A stretch of DNA of 64,000 nucleotides from Cenarchaeum sp. (GTDB lineage Archaea; Thermoproteota; Nitrososphaeria; Nitrososphaerales; Nitrosopumilaceae). A model generated the notes under the pieces. That model was not told the DNA's origin, searched no databases, and saw only the letters and a program-made list of their open reading frames with translations. The stretch lies in the NCBI GenBank assembly GCA_965206845.1, contig OZ242221.1:32001-96000 (forward strand), given 5' to 3'. A program made the translations under genes and the position numbers. This document shows, in pieces, positions 56,101 through 62,909 of the stretch; the first letter of the stretch is position 1; every line of letters begins with the position of its first letter.

Positions 56101-58654
56101 CAGTCGACTTTGGCGAGCCGATCGACGCCGCCACCTTCACGCTGGATGACATCTCCGTCACCGGCGGGGACGCCTCTGGCCTGGCCCAGGAGGGCGCGAC
56201 GACCCAAAAATACACATTCACCGTCACCCCGAGCTCCGACGGCCAGCTGACCGTCACGATCCCCGCCGACAGCGTCAAGGACCCCGCCGGCAACAACAAC
56301 ACCGCCTCCGGCCAGCTGCCAGTGACCTTCGACAGGACTACCCCCGTCCCCGCCCTGTCGACTGACGCGGCCTCCCCGACCAACGCGGCATCCGTCACCG
56401 TGGCAGTCGACTTTGGCGAGCCGATCGACGCCGCCACCTTCACGCTGGATGACATCTCCGTCACCGGCGGGGACGACCCAAAAATACACATTCACCTCTC
56501 CGACGGCCAGGCGCTGGCCCAGGAGGGCCGACGACCCAAAAATACACATTCACCGTCACCCCGAGCTCCGACGGCCAGCTGACCGTCACGATCCCCGCCG
56601 ACAGCGTCAAGGACCCCGCCGGCAACAACAACACCGCCTCCGGCCAGCTGCCCGTGACCTTCGACAGGACTACCCCCGGCCCCACCCTGTCGACTGACGC
56701 GGCCTCCCCGACCAACGCGGCATCCGTCACCGTGACAGTCGACTTTGGCGAGCCGATCGACGCCGCCACCTTCACGCTGGATGACATCTCCGTCACCGGC
56801 GGGGACGCCTCTGGCCTGGCCCAGGAGGGCGCGACGACCCAAAAATACACATTCACCGTCACCCCGAGCTCCGACGGCCAGCTGACCGTCACGATCCCCG
56901 CCGACAGCGTCAAGGACCCCGCCGGCAACAACAACACCGCCTCCGGCCAGCTGCCAGTGACCTTCGACAGGACGTCCCCGGCCCCGTCCCTGGCCACCGA
57001 CACCCCCTCTCTGACCAATGCTACCTCCGTCACCGTCGACTTCGGCGAGGCTATAGATGCCTCCACGTTTGCCATCTCGGACGTATCGGTCACCGGCGGG
57101 AATGCCACGAGCCTTGCCCACTCCTCGGCCAACCAGACATTCACCTTCACCCTGATGCCTGACGGCGACGGCGAGGGCGATGTGACTGCCGTAATCCCCG
57201 CCGGCAGCGTCACGGACCCCGCCGGCAACGACAACACCGCCTCCAACATCCTGTCGGTGACCCTCAAGCCGAATGTGGGATGTTTGGAGTATGTGTCATA
57301 CCCCAACAACCCGCCGGTCGTTGATGTGGGTGGAAGCATCACCGTAGCGGAGGGCGAGACCGGTACGCTCCGGGCCACGGTTACCGACATGGACGGCGAT
57401 GATGTGGAGACGATATGGTTTCACTGGAGTCTAGATAATGCGATCATCACCATCGCAGACCCCGAAAGCCTGGTCACGGAGTTTACTGCCCCGTACGTAG
57501 ATAGCGATACGGTCACATACGCGACACTATACGCATGTGACGGCATACACACCGGCGTCGGCAATGATGTCGTACGCATCACCATCACCGACATCCCGGA
57601 GCCGCCAGAGCCGCCCACGCCGCCCCAACTCCCGCCACCGGTACAGGAGCCGGCATACAACGAGTCACCATCCGCGGATGCCGGTGCGGGCTTTACAATC
57701 AACGAGGGCGCCACCGGCCAGCTGCAGGGCACGGCGACCGATCCCGACAACGACCCACTCACCATGGAGTGGTACCAAACCCCCACCTGGCCACTCCTGA
57801 CCCTGACGAATGCATCCGACCCGCGCACGACGATAGTCGCGCCGCAGGTGGACGGGGACACCACCATCACGCTGATACTGTCGGTTTCAGACGGCGACTA
57901 CACCGTGACCGACCAGGTCCGAATCACCATCACCGGCATCCCGGAGTCGCTGGAATCGTCGGAATCAACCACGCCGCCCCAACTCCCGCCACCGGTACAG
58001 GAGTCGGCATACAACGAGCCACCATCCGCGAATGCCGGTGCGGACTTTACAATCAACGAGGGCGCCACCGGCCAGCTGCAGGGCACGGCGACCGATCCCG
58101 ACAACGGCCCACTCACCATAGAGTGGTACCAAACCCCCACCTGGCCACTCCTGACCCTGACGAATGCATCCGACCCGCGCACGGCGATAGTCGCGCCGCA
58201 GGTGGACGGGGACACCACCATCACGCTGATACTGTCGGTTTCAGACGGCGACTACACCGTGACCGACCAGGTCCGAATCACCATCACCGACATCCCGGAG
58301 CCGCCGGAACCGTCGGAATCAACCACGCCGCCCCAACTCCCGCCACCGGTACAGGAGCCGGCATACAACGAGCCACCATCCGCGGATGCCGGTACGGACT
58401 TTACAATCAACGAGGGCGCCACCGGCCAGCTGCAGGGCACGGCAACCGATCTCGACAACGGCCCACTCACCATAGAGTGGTACCAAACCCCCACCTGGCC
58501 ACCCCTGACCCTGACTAATGCCTCCGACCCGCGCACGACGATAGTCGCGCCGCAGGTGGACGGGGACACCACCATCATGCTGATACTGTCAGTTTCGGAC
58601 GGCGACTACACCGTGAACGACCGGGTCCAAATCACCATCATCGATACCGGATAG
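50184..58654 (+). CDS. giant secreted surface protein: DUF285 array + cadherin-like + about 16 Ig-like repeats + PKD-like repeats; several frame breaks (pseudogene or assembly error)
   Basis: Domains continue seamlessly across ORFs 50184-51347, 51344-54253, 54415-55947, 56019-56582, 56654-58654; hydrophobic signal-like N-terminus; exact start codon uncertain. Confidence 0.8.
50660..51920 (+). repeat. about 17 DUF285 repeats of two lengths (75 and 72 bp)
   Basis: FNG(N/S/T)IT(N/D)WDTS and FNQPLDWDTS units. Confidence 0.9.
52200..57265 (+). repeat. 303-bp near-identical tandem repeats encoding Ig-like (Big_12-like) domains
   Basis: caggactacc at 52801 and 53104 (303 bp apart); unit FTVTPSSDGQLTVTIPADSVKDPAGN. 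Confidence 0.92.
57575..58650 (+). repeat. three about 354-bp repeats: Pro-rich linker + PKD/REJ-like domain
   Basis: PPQLPPPVQE.AYNE.PSA.AG..FTINEGATGQLQGTATD x3. Confidence 0.9.
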
Positions 58655-59131
58655 CCCTCCGCCACCATCTCCACCGTAATCCGACACGGAGCTATCCGTA
58701 CATGAACCGCTCACGTACAACTAACAGCCAGCCGTGGAGGCCGGTGCGGCGCGGGGGGAAGACCCCGGGCCGCGTCCGGGGGCAGTCTTTTTGCGCCTTC
58801 GCGTAAACCGGATCGCCGCACCAGGATGTCACGGGAATGATGCATGCCATGTGCCTGACGCGTGCCATGCGTCTCGGCGCAGAAAGGCTGCGCGGGGTGT
58901 TTTCCCAAACGCTAGATATGGATTGATGGAATTGATGTCTTATTCACCGCAACCATGTGCCACTCCAGAACAGCCATGCGCCCAGGCTGGCGCCGGACTT
59001 CTTGGTTCCCCACGCAGAGACGGCGTCATCCGCTACATTCGCGGCAAAGTCCTGTCCCGACTCCCGCCAAACGTGTCAGTCACGGTGTCGCGGCATTCGG
59101 CATTCGTTGGAGCGGCGGTAGGCGCACCTAT

Positions 59132-59280
59132 GTTAAAACATCCGGTCATAGTCAAGCGTTGATTCCGTTTGACTTCTGATCCACGCCTAGGTTACGCGCG
59201 TGCAACTTTAAAGCTACCGCTAGGGACTGGATTGCAGAAAATCCTGATGCAGGACAGGCCTGACTGGCCGGCCCGTGCAC
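59132..59280 (-). ncRNA. candidate bridge/seek RNA
   Basis: Non-coding region 3' of the IS110 recombinase with hairpins (GGAUU/AAUCC, CACGC/GCGUG, GUCAA/UUGAC); function inferred from family knowledge only. Confidence 0.45.
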
Positions 59281-60360
59281 CTACTGCAGGACCTTCTTCA
59301 TCCGTTTCAGCTTTCTGGCATATCGGTCTGCGTTGCGGGACTCGTACGGTTCCTTGGCAGTCAGCATCTTCCAGATGATCCTCACCATCTTGTTTGCCAC
59401 GTGCGTTATGGCAATCGGGTGGTTGCCACCGTGCCTTGTCTTGGCATTTTGATAGAACCACTTTAGCCTATCGTCATAGCGCACCGCCACGTTGGCGGCC
59501 TGGATCATTATCCAGTTTACCCTCCGGTTTGACGCCTTTTTCATGCGGCCGTAATGCGTCACGTTGCCGGACTGGTAGACCCGCGGACACATCCCGGTCC
59601 ATGAGACCAGCCTGTCTGCGGTCTTGAACCTGGTGATGTCGCCAATCTCAGATACCAGCAGCATTGCGGCAAACGTCTCTATGCCAGTCATGCTCATCAG
59701 CAGTTTCGCGTTCTCGTTGACTGCGGCCTGCAGGTCTATCTCTGCCTCGATGCATGTTATCTCCTCTGTGGCATGTGCAATCCTTTTGACGCAGTTTTGC
59801 AGGATCATGTCATCGTTTGGCTTCTTGAGGCGTATCTGCGAAAGCAGCCTGACGGCTTTTTTGCTATACATCCTTGAGACGTCTGGCGTCACGTCGTACT
59901 TGTCAAGCAGGCTGTGCGTGTAGTTGACCAGGGCGGTCCTTGCCTGGACCATGCTTATCCTGTACCTGAGCAGTTCCCTGGCATCGCGCAGATCCGGCGG
60001 TGCCACGTAGCATTCTGGAATGATTCCCACGCGCAGCGCGTTTGCAATCTTTTGCGCGTCGATGGGATCCGTCTTGACGTCGGTGTCCGATATTATCTTC
60101 ATCCTGTACGTGTTGGCAAGCTTGATCGGTATCCCGGACTCTTCAAACGCCTCAAACGTCTTGAGCCACATGTTTGCAGTCGATTCGCACGCGGCCTGGC
60201 ATCGTCCCTTCCCGCCGTATTCTTTTTTCATCCTGCGCGCAAACTCTTTTGCGTCTTCCAGCGTGTTCTTGTATGACGTCCTCTCCAGCACGCCTCCCTT
60301 GCCGTCCACTACGCATACTATGCATTTTCCTTTACCAATGTCTATTCCTATGTTTCTCAT
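59281..60360 (-). CDS. IS110 DEDD recombinase/transposase, intact
   Basis: GIDIGK, CESTA, KTDPIDA, MTGIE, GMCP.VYQSG (catalytic Ser); AGGAGGTG Shine-Dalgarno before the ATG at 60360. Confidence 0.95.
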   Translation of the reverse strand: MRNIGIDIGKGKCIVCVVDGKGGVLERTSYKNTLEDAKEFARRMKKEYGGKGRCQAACESTANMWLKTFEAFEESGIPIKLANTYRMKIISDTDVKTDPIDAQKIANALRVGIIPECYVAPPDLRDARELLRYRISMVQARTALVNYTHSLLDKYDVTPDVSRMYSKKAVRLLSQIRLKKPNDDMILQNCVKRIAHATEEITCIEAEIDLQAAVNENAKLLMSMTGIETFAAMLLVSEIGDITRFKTADRLVSWTGMCPRVYQSGNVTHYGRMKKASNRRVNWIMIQAANVAVRYDDRLKWFYQNAKTRHGGNHPIAITHVANKMVRIIWKMLTAKEPYESRNADRYARKLKRMKKVLQ

Positions 60361-60639
60361 CCTTTCTCTCACCTCCTTGCGGATTGTTTTTGGCGGATCG
60401 GAAGCTGCAATCACCTATCAGTGCGCGGAGCACAGGAACACAGCAGCTCGGATTGCCCCATTCAAAGGGAAGTGCGCGAAGCACATGGTTTACTAGGGGT
60501 CGATCCACTGCCATGACTACGACGAAGATGTTTTTCCATGTGTTCAAAGGTTGCTGTGGCTGGCAGAACAAGCAGCCTGACGGAAACGGGCCTGAAAAGT
60601 AGGGCGGGCAGGCTTGAAAAATAATAACGGATCACTTCT

Positions 60640-61076
60640 CTGCAAGGGATTGGGAATAGTGCCGCTCATCAGGATAAAGAAGAACGCCAACAGCAGGGCC
60701 GGCGGGGTGGGCAGGACGCGCGGCCTGGCCGCCCAGGATCAGCTGTGCGGCAACGATCCCGGCCCGAAAAGACTCGCCGCGCTGGACGAGTGCGAGCGCG
60801 TCCAGAACCAGAAGGACTGGAAGAGGTGGGTCGGCTACGGCCGGCGGTGGCTGGTGGAGATCGTGTTCTCGTCGCTCAAGCGGATGTTCGGCGGTTCCGT
60901 AAACGCGGTAAAGATGGAAAACATCGTCCAGGAGATCGCAATAAGGATCAACACGTACAACAGGCTGTTGGTGGTGGCACGGGAGGCGATCGCAGGAGCG
61001 TGAACGTAGAGTTGTCGCAAGCGCCCGCGCTTGGATCAAGGAGGTGCCATTAAGACCTAGGTTGTGAAACTAACTA
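60640..61076 (+). pseudogene. IS5-family transposase C-terminal fragment with right end
   Basis: WKRWVGYGRRWLVEIVFSSLKRMFG; terminus gttgtgaaactaacta shared with 18134. Confidence 0.85.
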
Positions 61077-61166
61077 CGATCCGGGCAAAGCATAAAATGT
61101 TGCACCCGCAAAGACAAGCATGGAATTCCACGCCGGCGCACGGCAGGGCTCCTCTCGGCCGTTGCC

Positions 61167-62909
61167 ATGAAAGCCAAGAAGCCGACGGCTCGACAGATAA
61201 GGAATCTGTGCACCGGGGAGTCGTTTGAGCAGGGGCGGCATTACTACGAGCAGGGCATGGTGGCATCGCCGCGCATAAGCGACACCGTCGTGATCGCGCG
61301 CGTCGGGAGTGTCACTCCGAACCGAAGGCCGGACGGGAGCCTCCCGACCGGCGGCACCGTTGTGATCTCCCTAGTCGGCAGGGGCGCCGGGGGCGTCAAG
61401 AATGCCGAACGAGTCAGGGCGCCAGATACCGGGCATGTCGTGGCAGCCCCGCTCGGTTCCTGCGACAGGGAGCACAGGTGCACATGCCCGTACGACGGAA
61501 AGGGGGCCTGCAGCCACGCCGTCGCGGTTCTGCTCTACGCGTCGGACAACTTTGAAAGGATGGCCAAAGACGCGAAGAGGCGAACCAGCCTCATCGGTGT
61601 CTCTCTTGAGGGAATAGTCAACGAGCAGCTGAGGGACTTTCTCATGTCTGAGATGAAGCGTGACGAGGGGCTGTGGAAGCGCTTTCTGGCCCGCGTTGAG
61701 ACCGGCGTGATCCGTGACTACCGCGCGGAGATTGACGCCGCGTATGCCAAGGATGGCGACCGATGGGGGTACAGGGGGGGCGTAAACCTCAGCGAGTTCT
61801 TCATGGCCGCCAAGGCCAACGAGAGGTGCAGAAACCTCGCGGAGGCCGGGCGGATATACGTGGACATGGCCGATGCCATCTACGCCAACATAGTACTCTC
61901 GTACAGCCACGGCGAGCGCTACGACGACTACGAGAAGGCCATAATCGGACTCGTGTCGTGCACGATCAGGCAGGATCGGGGATCCCGCGGGAGACGCCGG
62001 TGCATATCGTATCTGCTCGGGATGGTCGCAAAGGCCAAGATTGACGACGTTGTGGGCATCTGCGAGGATGCTCTGTGCGCGGTGTGCCCCGACAGGCAGG
62101 ACCTGGAGTACCTGAGGGATCTACTCGACCAGCTCGTTCCGGACACGGGTTCCCCCGATCGCCATTCCCTCCATAGCCGGAAGACCACAAGGCTGCTGCG
62201 CATGCAGGCCGATGTGCTGGGCAGGCTCGGAGACGAAGGGCAGGATGCATTCTGCGCAAAGTACTACAGGTACGATCCTGACATCTGCATGCGGTACCTC
62301 AAGATCCTGAACGAGTCGGATCCGGACAGGGCCATGCAGGTAATAGAGGAGGGCGGGCGCCTCTTTCCGCACATAGACATTGCGATGGCCGCGGCCGGAC
62401 TGTACCCGCGATCGGATCCGAGGCGGCTGGATCTGCTGAAGAGGATCTTCTACAAAAAGATGGATCACAGGTACTACCGCATGCTCCGTGACGAATCGAA
62501 CGACTGGCCGGGGATGGCCAAGTCCATAGCCGCGGATCTCAGGAAGGCCGGGCGGTTTGATGCCCTAGTCGCCGCGCTGCTTGCCGTGGGCGCCTACGGG
62601 AGGGCAGTCACCGAGGCGGTCTCGTGCGGCAGCCTTGAGGTGCTTGCGCTGCACCACGGCTACCTGTGCCCGAGGTATCCGGAACGGTACTACGCCGCCT
62701 ACAAGAGCCTCCTGGAAGACTTTGACATAACCGCAAGCAGCGACGGCCACAAAAAGTTCGCGAGGTATCTGAAGATGATGAAGTCCGTTCCGGGCCACGA
62801 GGAGGCGTTTGCGGGTTTTGTGGCATCCGTAATGGACAGGTACCGCAGGAGGTCTGCCCTTCTAAAGGAGATCAAGGCAGCCCTGATGCCGAGCCGAGCC
62901 GCAGTATGA
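61167..62909 (+). CDS. SWIM zinc-finger protein with helical repeat region
   Basis: SFEQGRHYY, CTCPY....CSHAVAVL SWIM motif. Confidence 0.85.
   Translation: MKAKKPTARQIRNLCTGESFEQGRHYYEQGMVASPRISDTVVIARVGSVTPNRRPDGSLPTGGTVVISLVGRGAGGVKNAERVRAPDTGHVVAAPLGSCDREHRCTCPYDGKGACSHAVAVLLYASDNFERMAKDAKRRTSLIGVSLEGIVNEQLRDFLMSEMKRDEGLWKRFLARVETGVIRDYRAEIDAAYAKDGDRWGYRGGVNLSEFFMAAKANERCRNLAEAGRIYVDMADAIYANIVLSYSHGERYDDYEKAIIGLVSCTIRQDRGSRGRRRCISYLLGMVAKAKIDDVVGICEDALCAVCPDRQDLEYLRDLLDQLVPDTGSPDRHSLHSRKTTRLLRMQADVLGRLGDEGQDAFCAKYYRYDPDICMRYLKILNESDPDRAMQVIEEGGRLFPHIDIAMAAAGLYPRSDPRRLDLLKRIFYKKMDHRYYRMLRDESNDWPGMAKSIAADLRKAGRFDALVAALLAVGAYGRAVTEAVSCGSLEVLALHHGYLCPRYPERYYAAYKSLLEDFDITASSDGHKKFARYLKMMKSVPGHEEAFAGFVASVMDRYRRRSALLKEIKAALMPSRAAV

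Follow-up and report, generated by a model that had tools for sequence, protein, structure and literature searches.

An intact archaeal IS110-group insertion sequence with a TG core and a very probable bridge RNA in its left end

The 64,000-nucleotide stretch of archaeal DNA analysed here (the window) carries a jumping gene of the IS110 family, which raises the question of where this element begins and ends and what directs it to its insertion sites. To our knowledge, bridge-RNA recombinases have been studied experimentally in bacteria only. IS1111-group elements with a bridge/seek RNA in the right end were reportedly described by Siddiquee et al. in 2024, and an earlier sequence-only reading of this locus proposed an IS1111-like element at 59125-60418 with a 7-bp core, inserted into a hairpin loop, with an RNA encoded 3′ of the gene, in the non-coding region 59132-59280, as its guide. 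We conclude that the locus is very probably an intact IS110-group insertion sequence at window positions 59127-60544, with a TG core (coding strand) on both sides and a bridge RNA encoded in its left end. If so, a mechanism already known from bacteria gains a further, archaeal example.

The recombinase ORF is intact, as that reading had claimed for an archaeal IS110-family element. Its 359-aa product matches PF01548 and PF02371 (E 9.3e-22 and 5.6e-24, both over the gathering score) as well as NF033542, the NCBIfam model "IS110 family RNA-guided transposase" (229 bits, cut-off 140). The DEDD and Ser residues D7, E59, D98, D101 and S264 are unchanged in 19 homologues (29-100% identity), one row of which, L035, comes from the unpublished genome G227, and by motif and position they would correspond to D11, E60, D102, D105 and S241 of IS621. 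Sequence matches to the recombinases of ISCro4 (9t56, 4.7e-8) and IS621 (8wt6, 4.2e-7) are weak.

To set the extent of the element we used sibling copies and 15 homologues together with empty sites. Copies in the host genome could be located with an nhmmer profile of A1; this genome has three that are full and one that is truncated, besides two partial matches. Homology among these copies spans 59125 to 60538, with L002 and L003 maintaining about 92% identity to the window copy up to 60538. The window copy has six extra element bases, to 60544, which are present in homologues too, and uninterrupted copies of the flanking repeat (including contigs of run X5) diverge exactly at 60544. Comparison of the junctions with empty sites showed TG on either side of inserted copies and a single TG where no copy is inserted. 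The sequence is ..CTCATT-TG-GTTATG.. in an empty MITE copy and ..AACCTT-TG-ATTTAC.. in three copies of the window's flanking repeat that are uninterrupted. The tips of the element are without terminal inverted repeats, as expected of the IS110 family. The element and its flank are made up as follows.

59125-59126, minus strand: right-end copy of the core dinucleotide, which reads TG on the coding strand and CA on the plus strand, from the comparison of copies and empty-site junctions
59127-59280, minus strand: right end (RE), 154 nt, non-coding, with conserved blocks (alignment A2); its last 5 nt, ATAGG, are the putative left donor arm
59130-59142, no strand: right-end arm of the subterminal inverted repeat (pair I2, 13 nt, 85% complementary)
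59177-59224, minus strand: conserved RE blocks, invariant columns of A2, with a variable spacer between
59281-60360, minus strand: IS110-family recombinase, 359 aa, ATG start at 60358-60360, carrying D7, E59, D98, D101 and S264
60361-60544, minus strand: left end (LE), 184 nt, which very probably encodes the bridge RNA, from copies and homologue alignments
60527-60539, no strand: left-end arm of the subterminal inverted repeat (pair I2), partner of 59130-59142
60539-60544, minus strand: AACACA, the first 6 nt of the element and putative right donor arm, absent from siblings L002-L004
60545-60546, minus strand: core dinucleotide at the left-end junction, from the junction comparison
60547-60642, plus strand: flank, the last ~100 bp of another IS, including the 3′ end of its DDE_Tnp_4 transposase gene

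The window copy is inserted into that other IS, and the AACCTT beside the core is the putative left target arm. These boundaries correct the annotation of the sequence-only reading. Its boundary at 59125 was right, but the element does not end at 60418; the copies remain homologous for 120-126 bp past that position, the element exceeds the proposal by 126 bp, and copies and empty sites give a core of 2 bp rather than 7. CACCTAT was indeed found twice, at 59125-59131 and 60412-60418, but the second occurrence is internal and corresponds to a donor guide, not to an end. The "unusually long core" and the "hairpin-loop insertion" both arose because this donor guide, AUAGGUG, was taken for the element's end: the reconstructed empty site GCGCAC-CTATCA-GTGCGC is an artefact in which flank is fused to an internal RNA hairpin (60421-60433). 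The DNA fold around the proposed hairpin target gave a z of +0.55. The right-end subterminal repeat that had been pointed out is real, with its partner at 60527-60539 and not at 60380-60390, and the repeat covaries across homologues (AAAACATC in L001, TAACCACCC in L016 and L017).

Upstream of the recombinase gene, the left end is predicted to fold into a closing stem and two stem-loops, each with an internal loop.

60393-60508, minus strand: bridge-RNA core, with an 8-bp closing stem (60501-60508 with 60393-60400)
60456-60499, minus strand: putative target-binding loop, basal stem CCCC/GGGG, distal hairpin 60472-60484
60486-60493, minus strand: target loop 5′ guide GUAAAC-CA, whose pairing partner would be the coding strand to the right of the core
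60463-60470, minus strand: target loop 3′ guide UCCCUU-UG, in coding-strand sense, left of the core, then AAU
60401-60449, minus strand: putative donor-binding loop, basal stem GAGCUGC/GCAGC..UC, distal hairpin 60421-60433
60436-60442, minus strand: donor loop 5′ guide UGUGUUC, which complements the LE start AACACA
60412-60418, minus strand: donor loop 3′ guide AUAGG-UG, equal to the RE end plus core

The fold was evaluated on 16 left ends, from elements with recombinase protein identities of 43-100%; the tests of both fold and guides set aside L022-L031, homologues of greater divergence. Paired cells amounted to 95.9%, whereas shuffling gave 85.2% and sliding the partners 31-51%; compensatory (two-sided) change was seen in 14 of 26 pairs, and 0 of 500 shuffles reached these values. 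Both sides have changed in seven of the eight pairs of the closing stem. Folded as a single sequence, the left end was no better than shuffles (z -0.43), its minimum-energy fold being the expected architecture, and the case for the fold therefore rests on covariation, which does show it. An Rfam scan of 58000-61500 at E <= 10 returned no family and only a chance snoRNA match (17.9 bits against a gathering score of 35). Between the bridge-RNA structure and the start codon lies a conserved AGGAGGTG (60370-60377). In RNA library X18, a 126-nt contig from a related element covers 60433-60472 at depth 374 and a coding-region contig has a depth of ~6; contig depth cannot rank parts of a gene.

We asked what the loop arms match. 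The first loop is variable and fits each element's insertion site, while the second is conserved and fits the element's own ends. At 16 sites the left target arm was identical at 4.81/6 positions, compared with 1.76 for 236 non-cognate pairs (0 of 100,000 permutations), and at 14 sites the right target arm gave 4.21/6, compared with 1.57 (0 of 100,000). The right donor arm, in 13 elements, gave 4.85 versus 3.93 (182 of 100,000 permutations), and the left donor arm agreed at 48 of 50 positions (175 of 100,000), a test that is partly circular because right ends were found by a motif containing the donor arm; as kin are not independent, all of these permutation figures overstate. Differences between sibling copies are concentrated in the guide arms, and the copies sit in different targets that match. 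L001 and L002 differ at 4 of 12 arm positions and 7 of 157 elsewhere (p = 0.004), and L007 and L008 at 4 of 12 and 1 of 163 (p = 6e-5). We conclude that, at the level of sequence, the arms of the putative guides match the DNA on both sides of the core.

Individual sites do not all conform. The window copy's own right flank, CGCCTA, shows 0/6 agreement with its guide, which requires the assumption of a secondary rearrangement; a contig from run X16, where a right end is joined to ..GTTTAC, agrees 6/6 with the same right target guide. The right-arm match of L021 is 1/6. Siblings L002-L004 are without 8 nt that include the right donor arm (3/6 pairs), yet they lie in three different repeat copies; AACACATG is absent from the L002-type left end. 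A genome scan for guide-predicted 14-mers with <=3 mismatches found 47 and 40 sites, fewer than the ~81 expected by chance, and is therefore uninformative.

Could the guide RNA instead come from the right end, as the IS1111-like proposal would have it? Besides the CACCTAT at both suggested ends, that proposal can draw on the 3′ region, which does fold somewhat above shuffles (z -2.56), and on the 154-nt RE and long subterminal repeats, which are IS1111-like traits according to the text of PMC11208160. However, a consensus fold of nine right ends gave three invariant pairs and no covariation, and hence no conserved structure. Segments of the right end do not follow the targets either: the longest exact match averaged 5.9 nt for cognate and 5.58 nt for non-cognate targets, whereas the left end gave 7.8 versus 5.63. 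L007 and L010 have the same RE spacer and different targets, and homologue L018 has a right end of only ~50 nt. The short matches on which the downstream RNA was proposed are at chance level or inside invariant motifs, since the complementarity of GATTGCAG and CTGCAATC is one among six perfect 8-nt inverted pairs in 1461 nt, and GCGGUAG, said to match a target flank, sits within the conserved motif CTAGCGNTAGC, which is there whatever the flank. Together with the homology past 60418 and the TG core in empty sites, this makes an IS1111-like element with a downstream guide extremely improbable. What stands of the proposed RNA-guided recombinase is that a guide RNA is very probable; the proposal misplaced the RNA, misjudged how far the element extends and chose the wrong subgroup, as both guide loops lie upstream of the recombinase.

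The left-end structure might also be a regulatory 5′ leader of the recombinase mRNA, acting on translation or stability, with the protein choosing the target, a role that would suit its position, directly followed by the conserved AGGAGGTG and then the start codon. A leader leaves unexplained why the loop arms follow each element's flanks and ends and why sibling differences are concentrated in those arms, and an orphan left end whose recombinase gene is absent has been kept in the genome; we regard this explanation as very unlikely. A similarly slim chance attaches to an RNA from the opposite strand, antisense to the recombinase, which would act as an antisense regulator or as a guide whose polarity is reversed. 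The complementary strand does form the same helices, but by manual count the stems contain 17 GU/UG cells versus 5 AC/CA cells, which favours the sense strand. The sense strand also gives arm-then-core, 5′ to 3′, in both guides of each loop, like IS621 as described in the text of PMC11208158, whereas the antisense strand would give core-then-arm.

With a sense-strand bridge RNA in the left end as the preferred reading, we infer the following mechanism. The RNA would be transcribed from the 184-nt left end in the sense of the recombinase gene and would bind the recombinase as a three-way junction of closing stem, target-binding stem-loop and donor-binding stem-loop, both stem-loops having a large internal loop that encloses a short distal hairpin. 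To the left of the core, one DNA strand would be bound by one arm of the target loop; to its right, the opposite strand would be bound by the second arm. The donor loop would pair in the same two-armed way with the joined right-end/left-end junction of an excised circle, predicted to read ..TTTTAACATAGG-TG-AACACATGGAAAAAC... Strand exchange would then occur at the TG core, catalysed by the DEDD/Ser recombinase. The contigs listed for four sequencing runs included no RE-LE joint of such a circle. Changes in a few guide bases would retarget the element: the window copy would aim at ..CCTT-TG-(A/G)TTTAC.., found at the 3′ end of a transposase gene belonging to another IS, and its siblings at ..TTCATT-TG-GTTATG.. 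in a small MITE-like repeat.

Comparison alone thus recovers the full predicted logic of a bridge-RNA system (fold, target and donor guides, dinucleotide core) in ammonia-oxidising archaea. The siblings look like a natural "reprogramming", in which copies in the same genome have a few guide bases changed and correspondingly different mobile-element targets, and they offer ready-made guide-target pairs with which an archaeal bridge recombinase could be bench-tested. The unusual mix of IS110-like and IS1111-like traits also informs the relation of the two groups. It is possible, if rather unlikely, that such elements form a sub-class in the Nitrosopumilaceae, marked by a three-way junction with a closing stem, guide polarity mirrored relative to IS621, IS1111-like repeats combined with an IS110-like left-end RNA, and archaeal TATA-type promoters. 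The core may be CA in the frame of the ribonucleoprotein, with recombinase and RNA on the other strand. Promoters may lie in the right end or the subterminal repeat and read over the circle junction; the RE blocks, a TATA-like CTAGCGNTAGCT[AT]TAAA (59206-59224) and YTAGGCRYGGATC (59177-59191), are a candidate outward-facing archaeal promoter, judging from their sequence, with the RE tip and the A-rich repeat of the left end as other candidates. If this sub-class is real, a 359-aa protein and an RNA of ~120-180 nt would provide a compact new chassis for programmable recombination with archaeal transcription, orphan guide RNAs could act in trans, and the elements might be an intermediate between IS110 and IS1111.

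Among known systems, the ISCro4 / IS622 bridge recombinase (PDB 9t56; bioRxiv 10.1101/2025.05.14.653916) belongs to the same family and is the top sequence match among solved structures (4.7e-8, residues 188-342), but the protein match is weak and does not extend beyond the C-terminal domain. IS621, of the IS110 group, is described as having a 177-nt bridge RNA (Durrant et al. 2024, PMC11208160; Hiraizumi et al. 2024, PMC11208158), laid out according to PMC11208160 as a left-end RNA in which the first loop varies, the second is conserved and the guides take in the core. As far as the text of these papers describes IS621, it and the present element are alike in the DEDD/Ser recombinase, in an RNA that the left end encodes in the sense of the recombinase and upstream of it, in a variable target-binding loop followed by a conserved donor-binding loop, and in two guide arms about a distal hairpin in each loop. 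In both, the guides contain the dinucleotide core, with one donor guide reaching its first base only, two bases past a target guide can pair with the donor (compare the handshake guide), and repeated sequences serve as targets. They differ in that the host here is archaeal, any promoter would need to be of the archaeal TATA type, and the protein similarity is distant (E 4e-7). The core here is TG, versus CT as stated for IS621; an 8-bp closing stem joins the loops into a predicted three-way junction; the 154-nt right end is long; and subterminal inverted repeats measure ~8-14 bp, versus 2-3 bp as stated for IS621. The coding-sense guide lies on the 3′ side of each loop here, whereas the text of the papers would put LTG and LDG on the 5′ side, so that the guide polarity may be mirrored.

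Like the IS1111 group, for which PMC11208160 places the guide RNA in the right end, the element has a right end and subterminal repeats that are long, and it inserts into sequences that are repeated or mobile. Judged by a downstream guide RNA, subterminal repeats of 7-17 bp and a short left end, it agrees with that group in repeat length (13 nt), but both guide loops are in a left end of 184 nt, and the RE showed neither fold nor target match. The IS110 group is characterised in the text of PMC11208160 by a long left end, a short right end and a 2-3-bp subterminal inverted repeat, of which the 184-nt LE fits and the 154-nt RE and the 13-nt, 85% complementary repeat do not. Sequence comparison nevertheless assigns the element to the IS110-group arrangement, with guide loops upstream rather than downstream of the recombinase: its predicted RNA is a left-end RNA of two stem-loops, of which the first fits the target and the second the donor ends.

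The minus strand encodes a 359-aa protein (59281-60360) that carries both IS110 domains, PF01548 and PF02371, and matches the NCBIfam model NF033542, "IS110 family RNA-guided transposase", with 229 bits against a cut-off of 140. Residues D7, E59, D98, D101 and S264 were invariant in an alignment of 19 homologues with 29-100% identity (row L035 is from an unpublished genome, G227). The only solved relatives found by sequence were the ISCro4 (4.7e-8) and IS621 (4.2e-7) recombinases, both weak matches. Taking the left-end RNA described below into account, we conclude that this is a real bridge-RNA element of the IS110 group, a known kind, and that it is very probably functional. One contig of 1.65 Mb makes up the window's genome, and a DNA search of it returned six matches, listed here with the revised boundaries.

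59127-60544, minus (coding) strand: the element, window copy (L001), delimited by sibling copies, homologues and uninterrupted flanking repeats
59125-59126 and 60545-60546: the two copies of the core, TG, from junction comparison
L002 and L003 (G000 C1:1326793-1328212 and 1542298-1543716): full copies, 92% identity
L004 (G000 C1:1266804-1267863): 5′-truncated copy
L005 and L006: partial matches

Besides L001-L004, two IS110-family genes are present in this genome (G000 C1:96591-97622 and 443523-444083). The first, ~600 bp past the end of the window, shows 30% identity; the second, which belongs to L005, shows 45-46%, breaks off after ~188 aa and carries a complete bridge-RNA left end of its own.

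The sequence-only reading had placed the element between two copies of a 7-bp core, CACCTAT, inserted in a hairpin loop. Both occurrences are present (59125-59131 and 60412-60418), and neither the right end at 60418 nor the long core survived comparison. L002 and L003 are homologous to the window over 59125-60538, which is 120 bp past that end. They and L004 sit within a MITE-like repeat of ~78 bp, an unoccupied relative of which reads ..CTCATT-TG-GTTATG.., so that the junctions are CATT|TG|GAAAAAC... and ...ATAGG|TG|GTTATG and the core is TG. The window copy has six extra bases, AACACA (60539-60544), between the core and GGAAAAAC. A similar hexamer directly follows TG in 12 of 13 tabulated elements (11 AAYRCA-like, the exception being the L002 type). 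The repeat flanking the window copy has three uninterrupted copies, which read ..AACCTT-TG-ATTTAC.., and it is precisely at this point that the window departs from them; assembled contigs of sequencing run X5 carry the same uninterrupted form up to 60544. AACACA therefore belongs to the element. The hairpin-loop target was wrong, and the proposed inverted repeat (59135-59144/60380-60390) is replaced by the true subterminal pair, 59130-59142 with 60527-60539, which changes in step between homologues.

The guide RNA had been assigned to the 3′ non-coding region (59132-59280). Nine right ends gave a consensus fold with three invariant pairs, zero covariation and no common structure, and the right end of L018 is only ~50 nt. 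The longest exact match of a right end to its own reconstructed target averaged 5.9 nt vs 5.58 for non-cognate targets, and for left ends the mean was 7.8 nt vs 5.63. Left ends were compared in an alignment, A1, of 16 sequences: the window copy, its sibling L002, three copies in OZ240211.1 (a public MAG), and eleven further loci whose recombinases show 43-62% identity, of which two lie in the genome of the window and nine in other genomes of the family. These were drawn from sets of 5 and 30 loci, the second from a search in which 37 of 301 same-family genomes matched at E <= 1e-30; the more divergent loci L022-L031 and a group at 29-33% identity were left out.

RNAalifold on A1 gave a closing stem of 8 bp, a first stem-loop with a CCCC/GGGG basal stem and a 4-bp distal hairpin, and a second with a GAGCUGC/GCAGC..UC basal stem and a 3-bp distal hairpin. 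Standard pairs filled 95.9% of 416 cells; shuffles averaged 85.2%, and sliding the partners gave 31-51%. Changes on both sides were seen in 14 of the 26 pairs. The observed pairing, double-change count and covariation score were each reached by 0/500 shuffles; the count of further pair types was unexceptional (59/500). GU/UG cells outnumbered AC/CA cells (17 vs 5), indicating that the RNA is in the sense of the recombinase gene. The minimum-energy fold of the window copy's left end is the same three-way junction, no more stable than shuffles as a single sequence (z −0.43), and Rfam had no match for it. We conclude from this covariation that the left end very probably encodes the bridge RNA.

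The internal loop is variable in the first stem-loop (loop 1, target-binding) and conserved in the second (loop 2, donor-binding). The left target arm lies on the 3′ side of loop 1 and reads in the same sense as the six bases to the left of the core on the coding strand, with UG added; it was identical at 4.81 of 6 positions across 16 insertion sites vs 1.76 for 236 non-cognate pairs (0/100,000 permutations). On the 5′ side, the right target arm is the complement of the six bases that lie to the right of the core and continues with CA, replaced by wobble-pairing bases in a few elements; 4.21 of 6 positions paired at 14 sites vs 1.57 (0/100,000). L003 was omitted as a duplicate of L002; the left-arm test is without L014, which has no left flank, and the right-arm test without L005, L036 and L038, which have no right end. 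In loop 2, the right donor arm (5′) is complementary to the element's first six bases (4.85 vs 3.93; 182/100,000 permutations reach the observed value), with compensatory cases AACACA/UGUGUU, AAUGCA/UGCGUU, AAUACA/AGUAUU and UACACA/UGUGUA. The left donor arm (3′) repeats the last five right-end bases plus UG: it agreed at 48/50 positions, with a match for each of the variants ATAGG, ATAGA and ATGGA (175/100,000), in a test that is partly circular because right ends were located by a terminal motif containing those bases. In the window copy this guide occupies 60412-60418, precisely the second CACCTAT.

Sibling elements differ mainly in their guide arms. L001 and L002 differ at 4/12 arm positions vs 7/157 elsewhere (p = 0.004), and the homologues L007 and L008 at 4/12 vs 1/163 (p = 6e-5); read from these comparisons, this is natural retargeting. 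In the window copy the arms read UCCCUU-UG and GUAAAC-CA; they fit ..CCTT-TG-ATTTAC.., a site in the last codons of the DDE_Tnp_4 transposase gene of another insertion sequence, and the L002-type arms fit the MITE site. The present right flank of the window copy, CGCCTA, fits the right target guide at 0/6 positions, and the main part of the host IS is absent from this side; we infer a later deletion or rearrangement there. One contig of run X16 joins the same right end to ..GTTTAC.. (6/6 with the guide), and another carries an L001-like target loop (2 differences) with the same left junction, which is supportive, not conclusive, since these are two separate contigs. Two 2026 papers on excision and 'half-match' recombination (PMC13626964 and 10.64898/2026.08.31.748434) may be relevant to the mismatched right flank and to the truncation of L004.

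Several copies showed further peculiarities. L002-L004 lack 8 nt of the left end, AACACATG, including the right donor arm, and pair at 3/6 with the donor guide; despite this they occupy the same position in three different MITE copies. The bodies of L002 and L003 are 98.2% identical and their MITE flanks agree at only 48/54 positions, which suggests independent insertions. In L004 the flank ..CATT-TG-GAAA is fused directly to an internal TGGAAACATGTGG, ~360 bp into the element, which resembles the L002-type left end TGGAAAAACAT; the truncation may have arisen by microhomology deletion, or else by recombination with a pseudo-donor site. Members of the MITE-like family (G000 C1:~262120-262200, 864000-864046, 1096155-1096201 and 1505536-1505582) end in inverted repeats, GGCTGTGTCCTAC.../...GTAGGACGCAGC, and are flanked by direct duplications of ~8-11 bp; one subfamily carries the L002-type target site. 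L006 (G000 C1:678681-678850, outside the window) is an orphan full-length left end with its bridge RNA (nhmmer E 3e-38) with no recombinase ORF downstream, and its left target arm AUUAGU-UG matches its own flank CTTAGT-TG. Among the homologues, L010 (OZ240211.1) has CG instead of TG at its right-end junction, L016 a tandem duplication of the left flank, L020 ~4 extra bases between core and predicted left target, and L021 a duplicated right-end tip with a donor arm matching at 3/5.

The nine right ends share an order of CTAGCGNTAGCT[AT]TAAA, a variable spacer, YTAGGCRYGGATC, the subterminal repeat and the donor arm, blocks that we read as DNA-level signals. There is about an even chance that a TATA-like box ~24 nt upstream of a conserved stretch marks an outward promoter; in a circle, transcription from it would cross the junction and run into the bridge RNA. 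A direct repeat, RYGGATC, occurs in the right end (59177-59191, block YTAGGCRYGGATC) and as the 5′ strand of the closing stem (60501-60508), and either copy is able to pair with CGATCC, the 3′ strand. For the right-end copy, this pairing is 8/8 in L016, and in L019 the copy shows a compensating change, GGATT/AATCC, not seen in the left-end strand. The repeat may allow alternative pairing within a transcript that spans the junction, or it may supply repeated sites for protein binding.

Beside the element, 60547-61077 is a pile-up of IS debris: the final ~100 bp of a DDE_Tnp_4 insertion sequence (60544-60642; three intact copies elsewhere) and a fragment of another IS (60640-61077; repeated at two other loci, 97% identity) with a DDE_Tnp_1 C-terminal ORF at 60614-61003. 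A 580-aa ORF (61167-62909) adjoins the debris, its sole family match being a SWIM zinc finger (E 2.3e-4). At 56654-58654 a 666-aa ORF combines Big_12, Big_13 and PKD-like domains with internal, near-identical ~354-bp repeats (93-95% at the DNA level). In assembled contigs of an RNA library (run X18), a 126-nt contig from a related element's bridge-RNA region (over 60433-60472) had a depth of 374 and one over the 5′ part of the recombinase ~6, depths that cannot rank parts of a gene.

We found no published description of Nitrosopumilaceae bridge RNAs in the accessible text of the literature, and the supplements of PMC11208160, 10.1101/2024.06.21.599552 and 10.64898/2026.10.21.760802 may already include the loci analysed here. 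Vaysset et al. (bioRxiv 10.1101/2024.06.21.599552) counted 662 archaeal IS110 recombinases, and the 2026 preprint 10.64898/2026.10.21.760802 reports large-scale clustering of IS110-adjacent intergenic RNAs from bacteria and archaea. According to PMC11208160, the IS110-group RNA is ~177 nt, lies in the left end and combines a 5′ stem-loop with a target loop that varies and a donor loop that is conserved; guides include the core, and right ends are short with subterminal repeats of 2-3 bp, whereas the IS1111-group RNA lies in the right end with repeats of 7-17 bp. The candidate right-end promoter would be the archaeal counterpart of the IS621 junction promoter described there. In IS621, as PMC11208158 describes it, the 5′ side holds LTG (50-58) and LDG, the 3′ side holds RTG (77-80) and RDG, RTG is followed by handshake bases, and LDG covers the first core base only. 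In the window element, each loop carries the arm in coding-strand sense on its 3′ side. When the DNA is read in the opposite orientation (core CA) the whole IS621 scheme fits, including the AA after the target arm, which pairs with bases 1 and 2 of the element, and the donor arm's coverage of the first core base only. This fit suggests that the element works like IS621 and, set against the text descriptions of that system, its genes appear to be mirrored relative to guide polarity.
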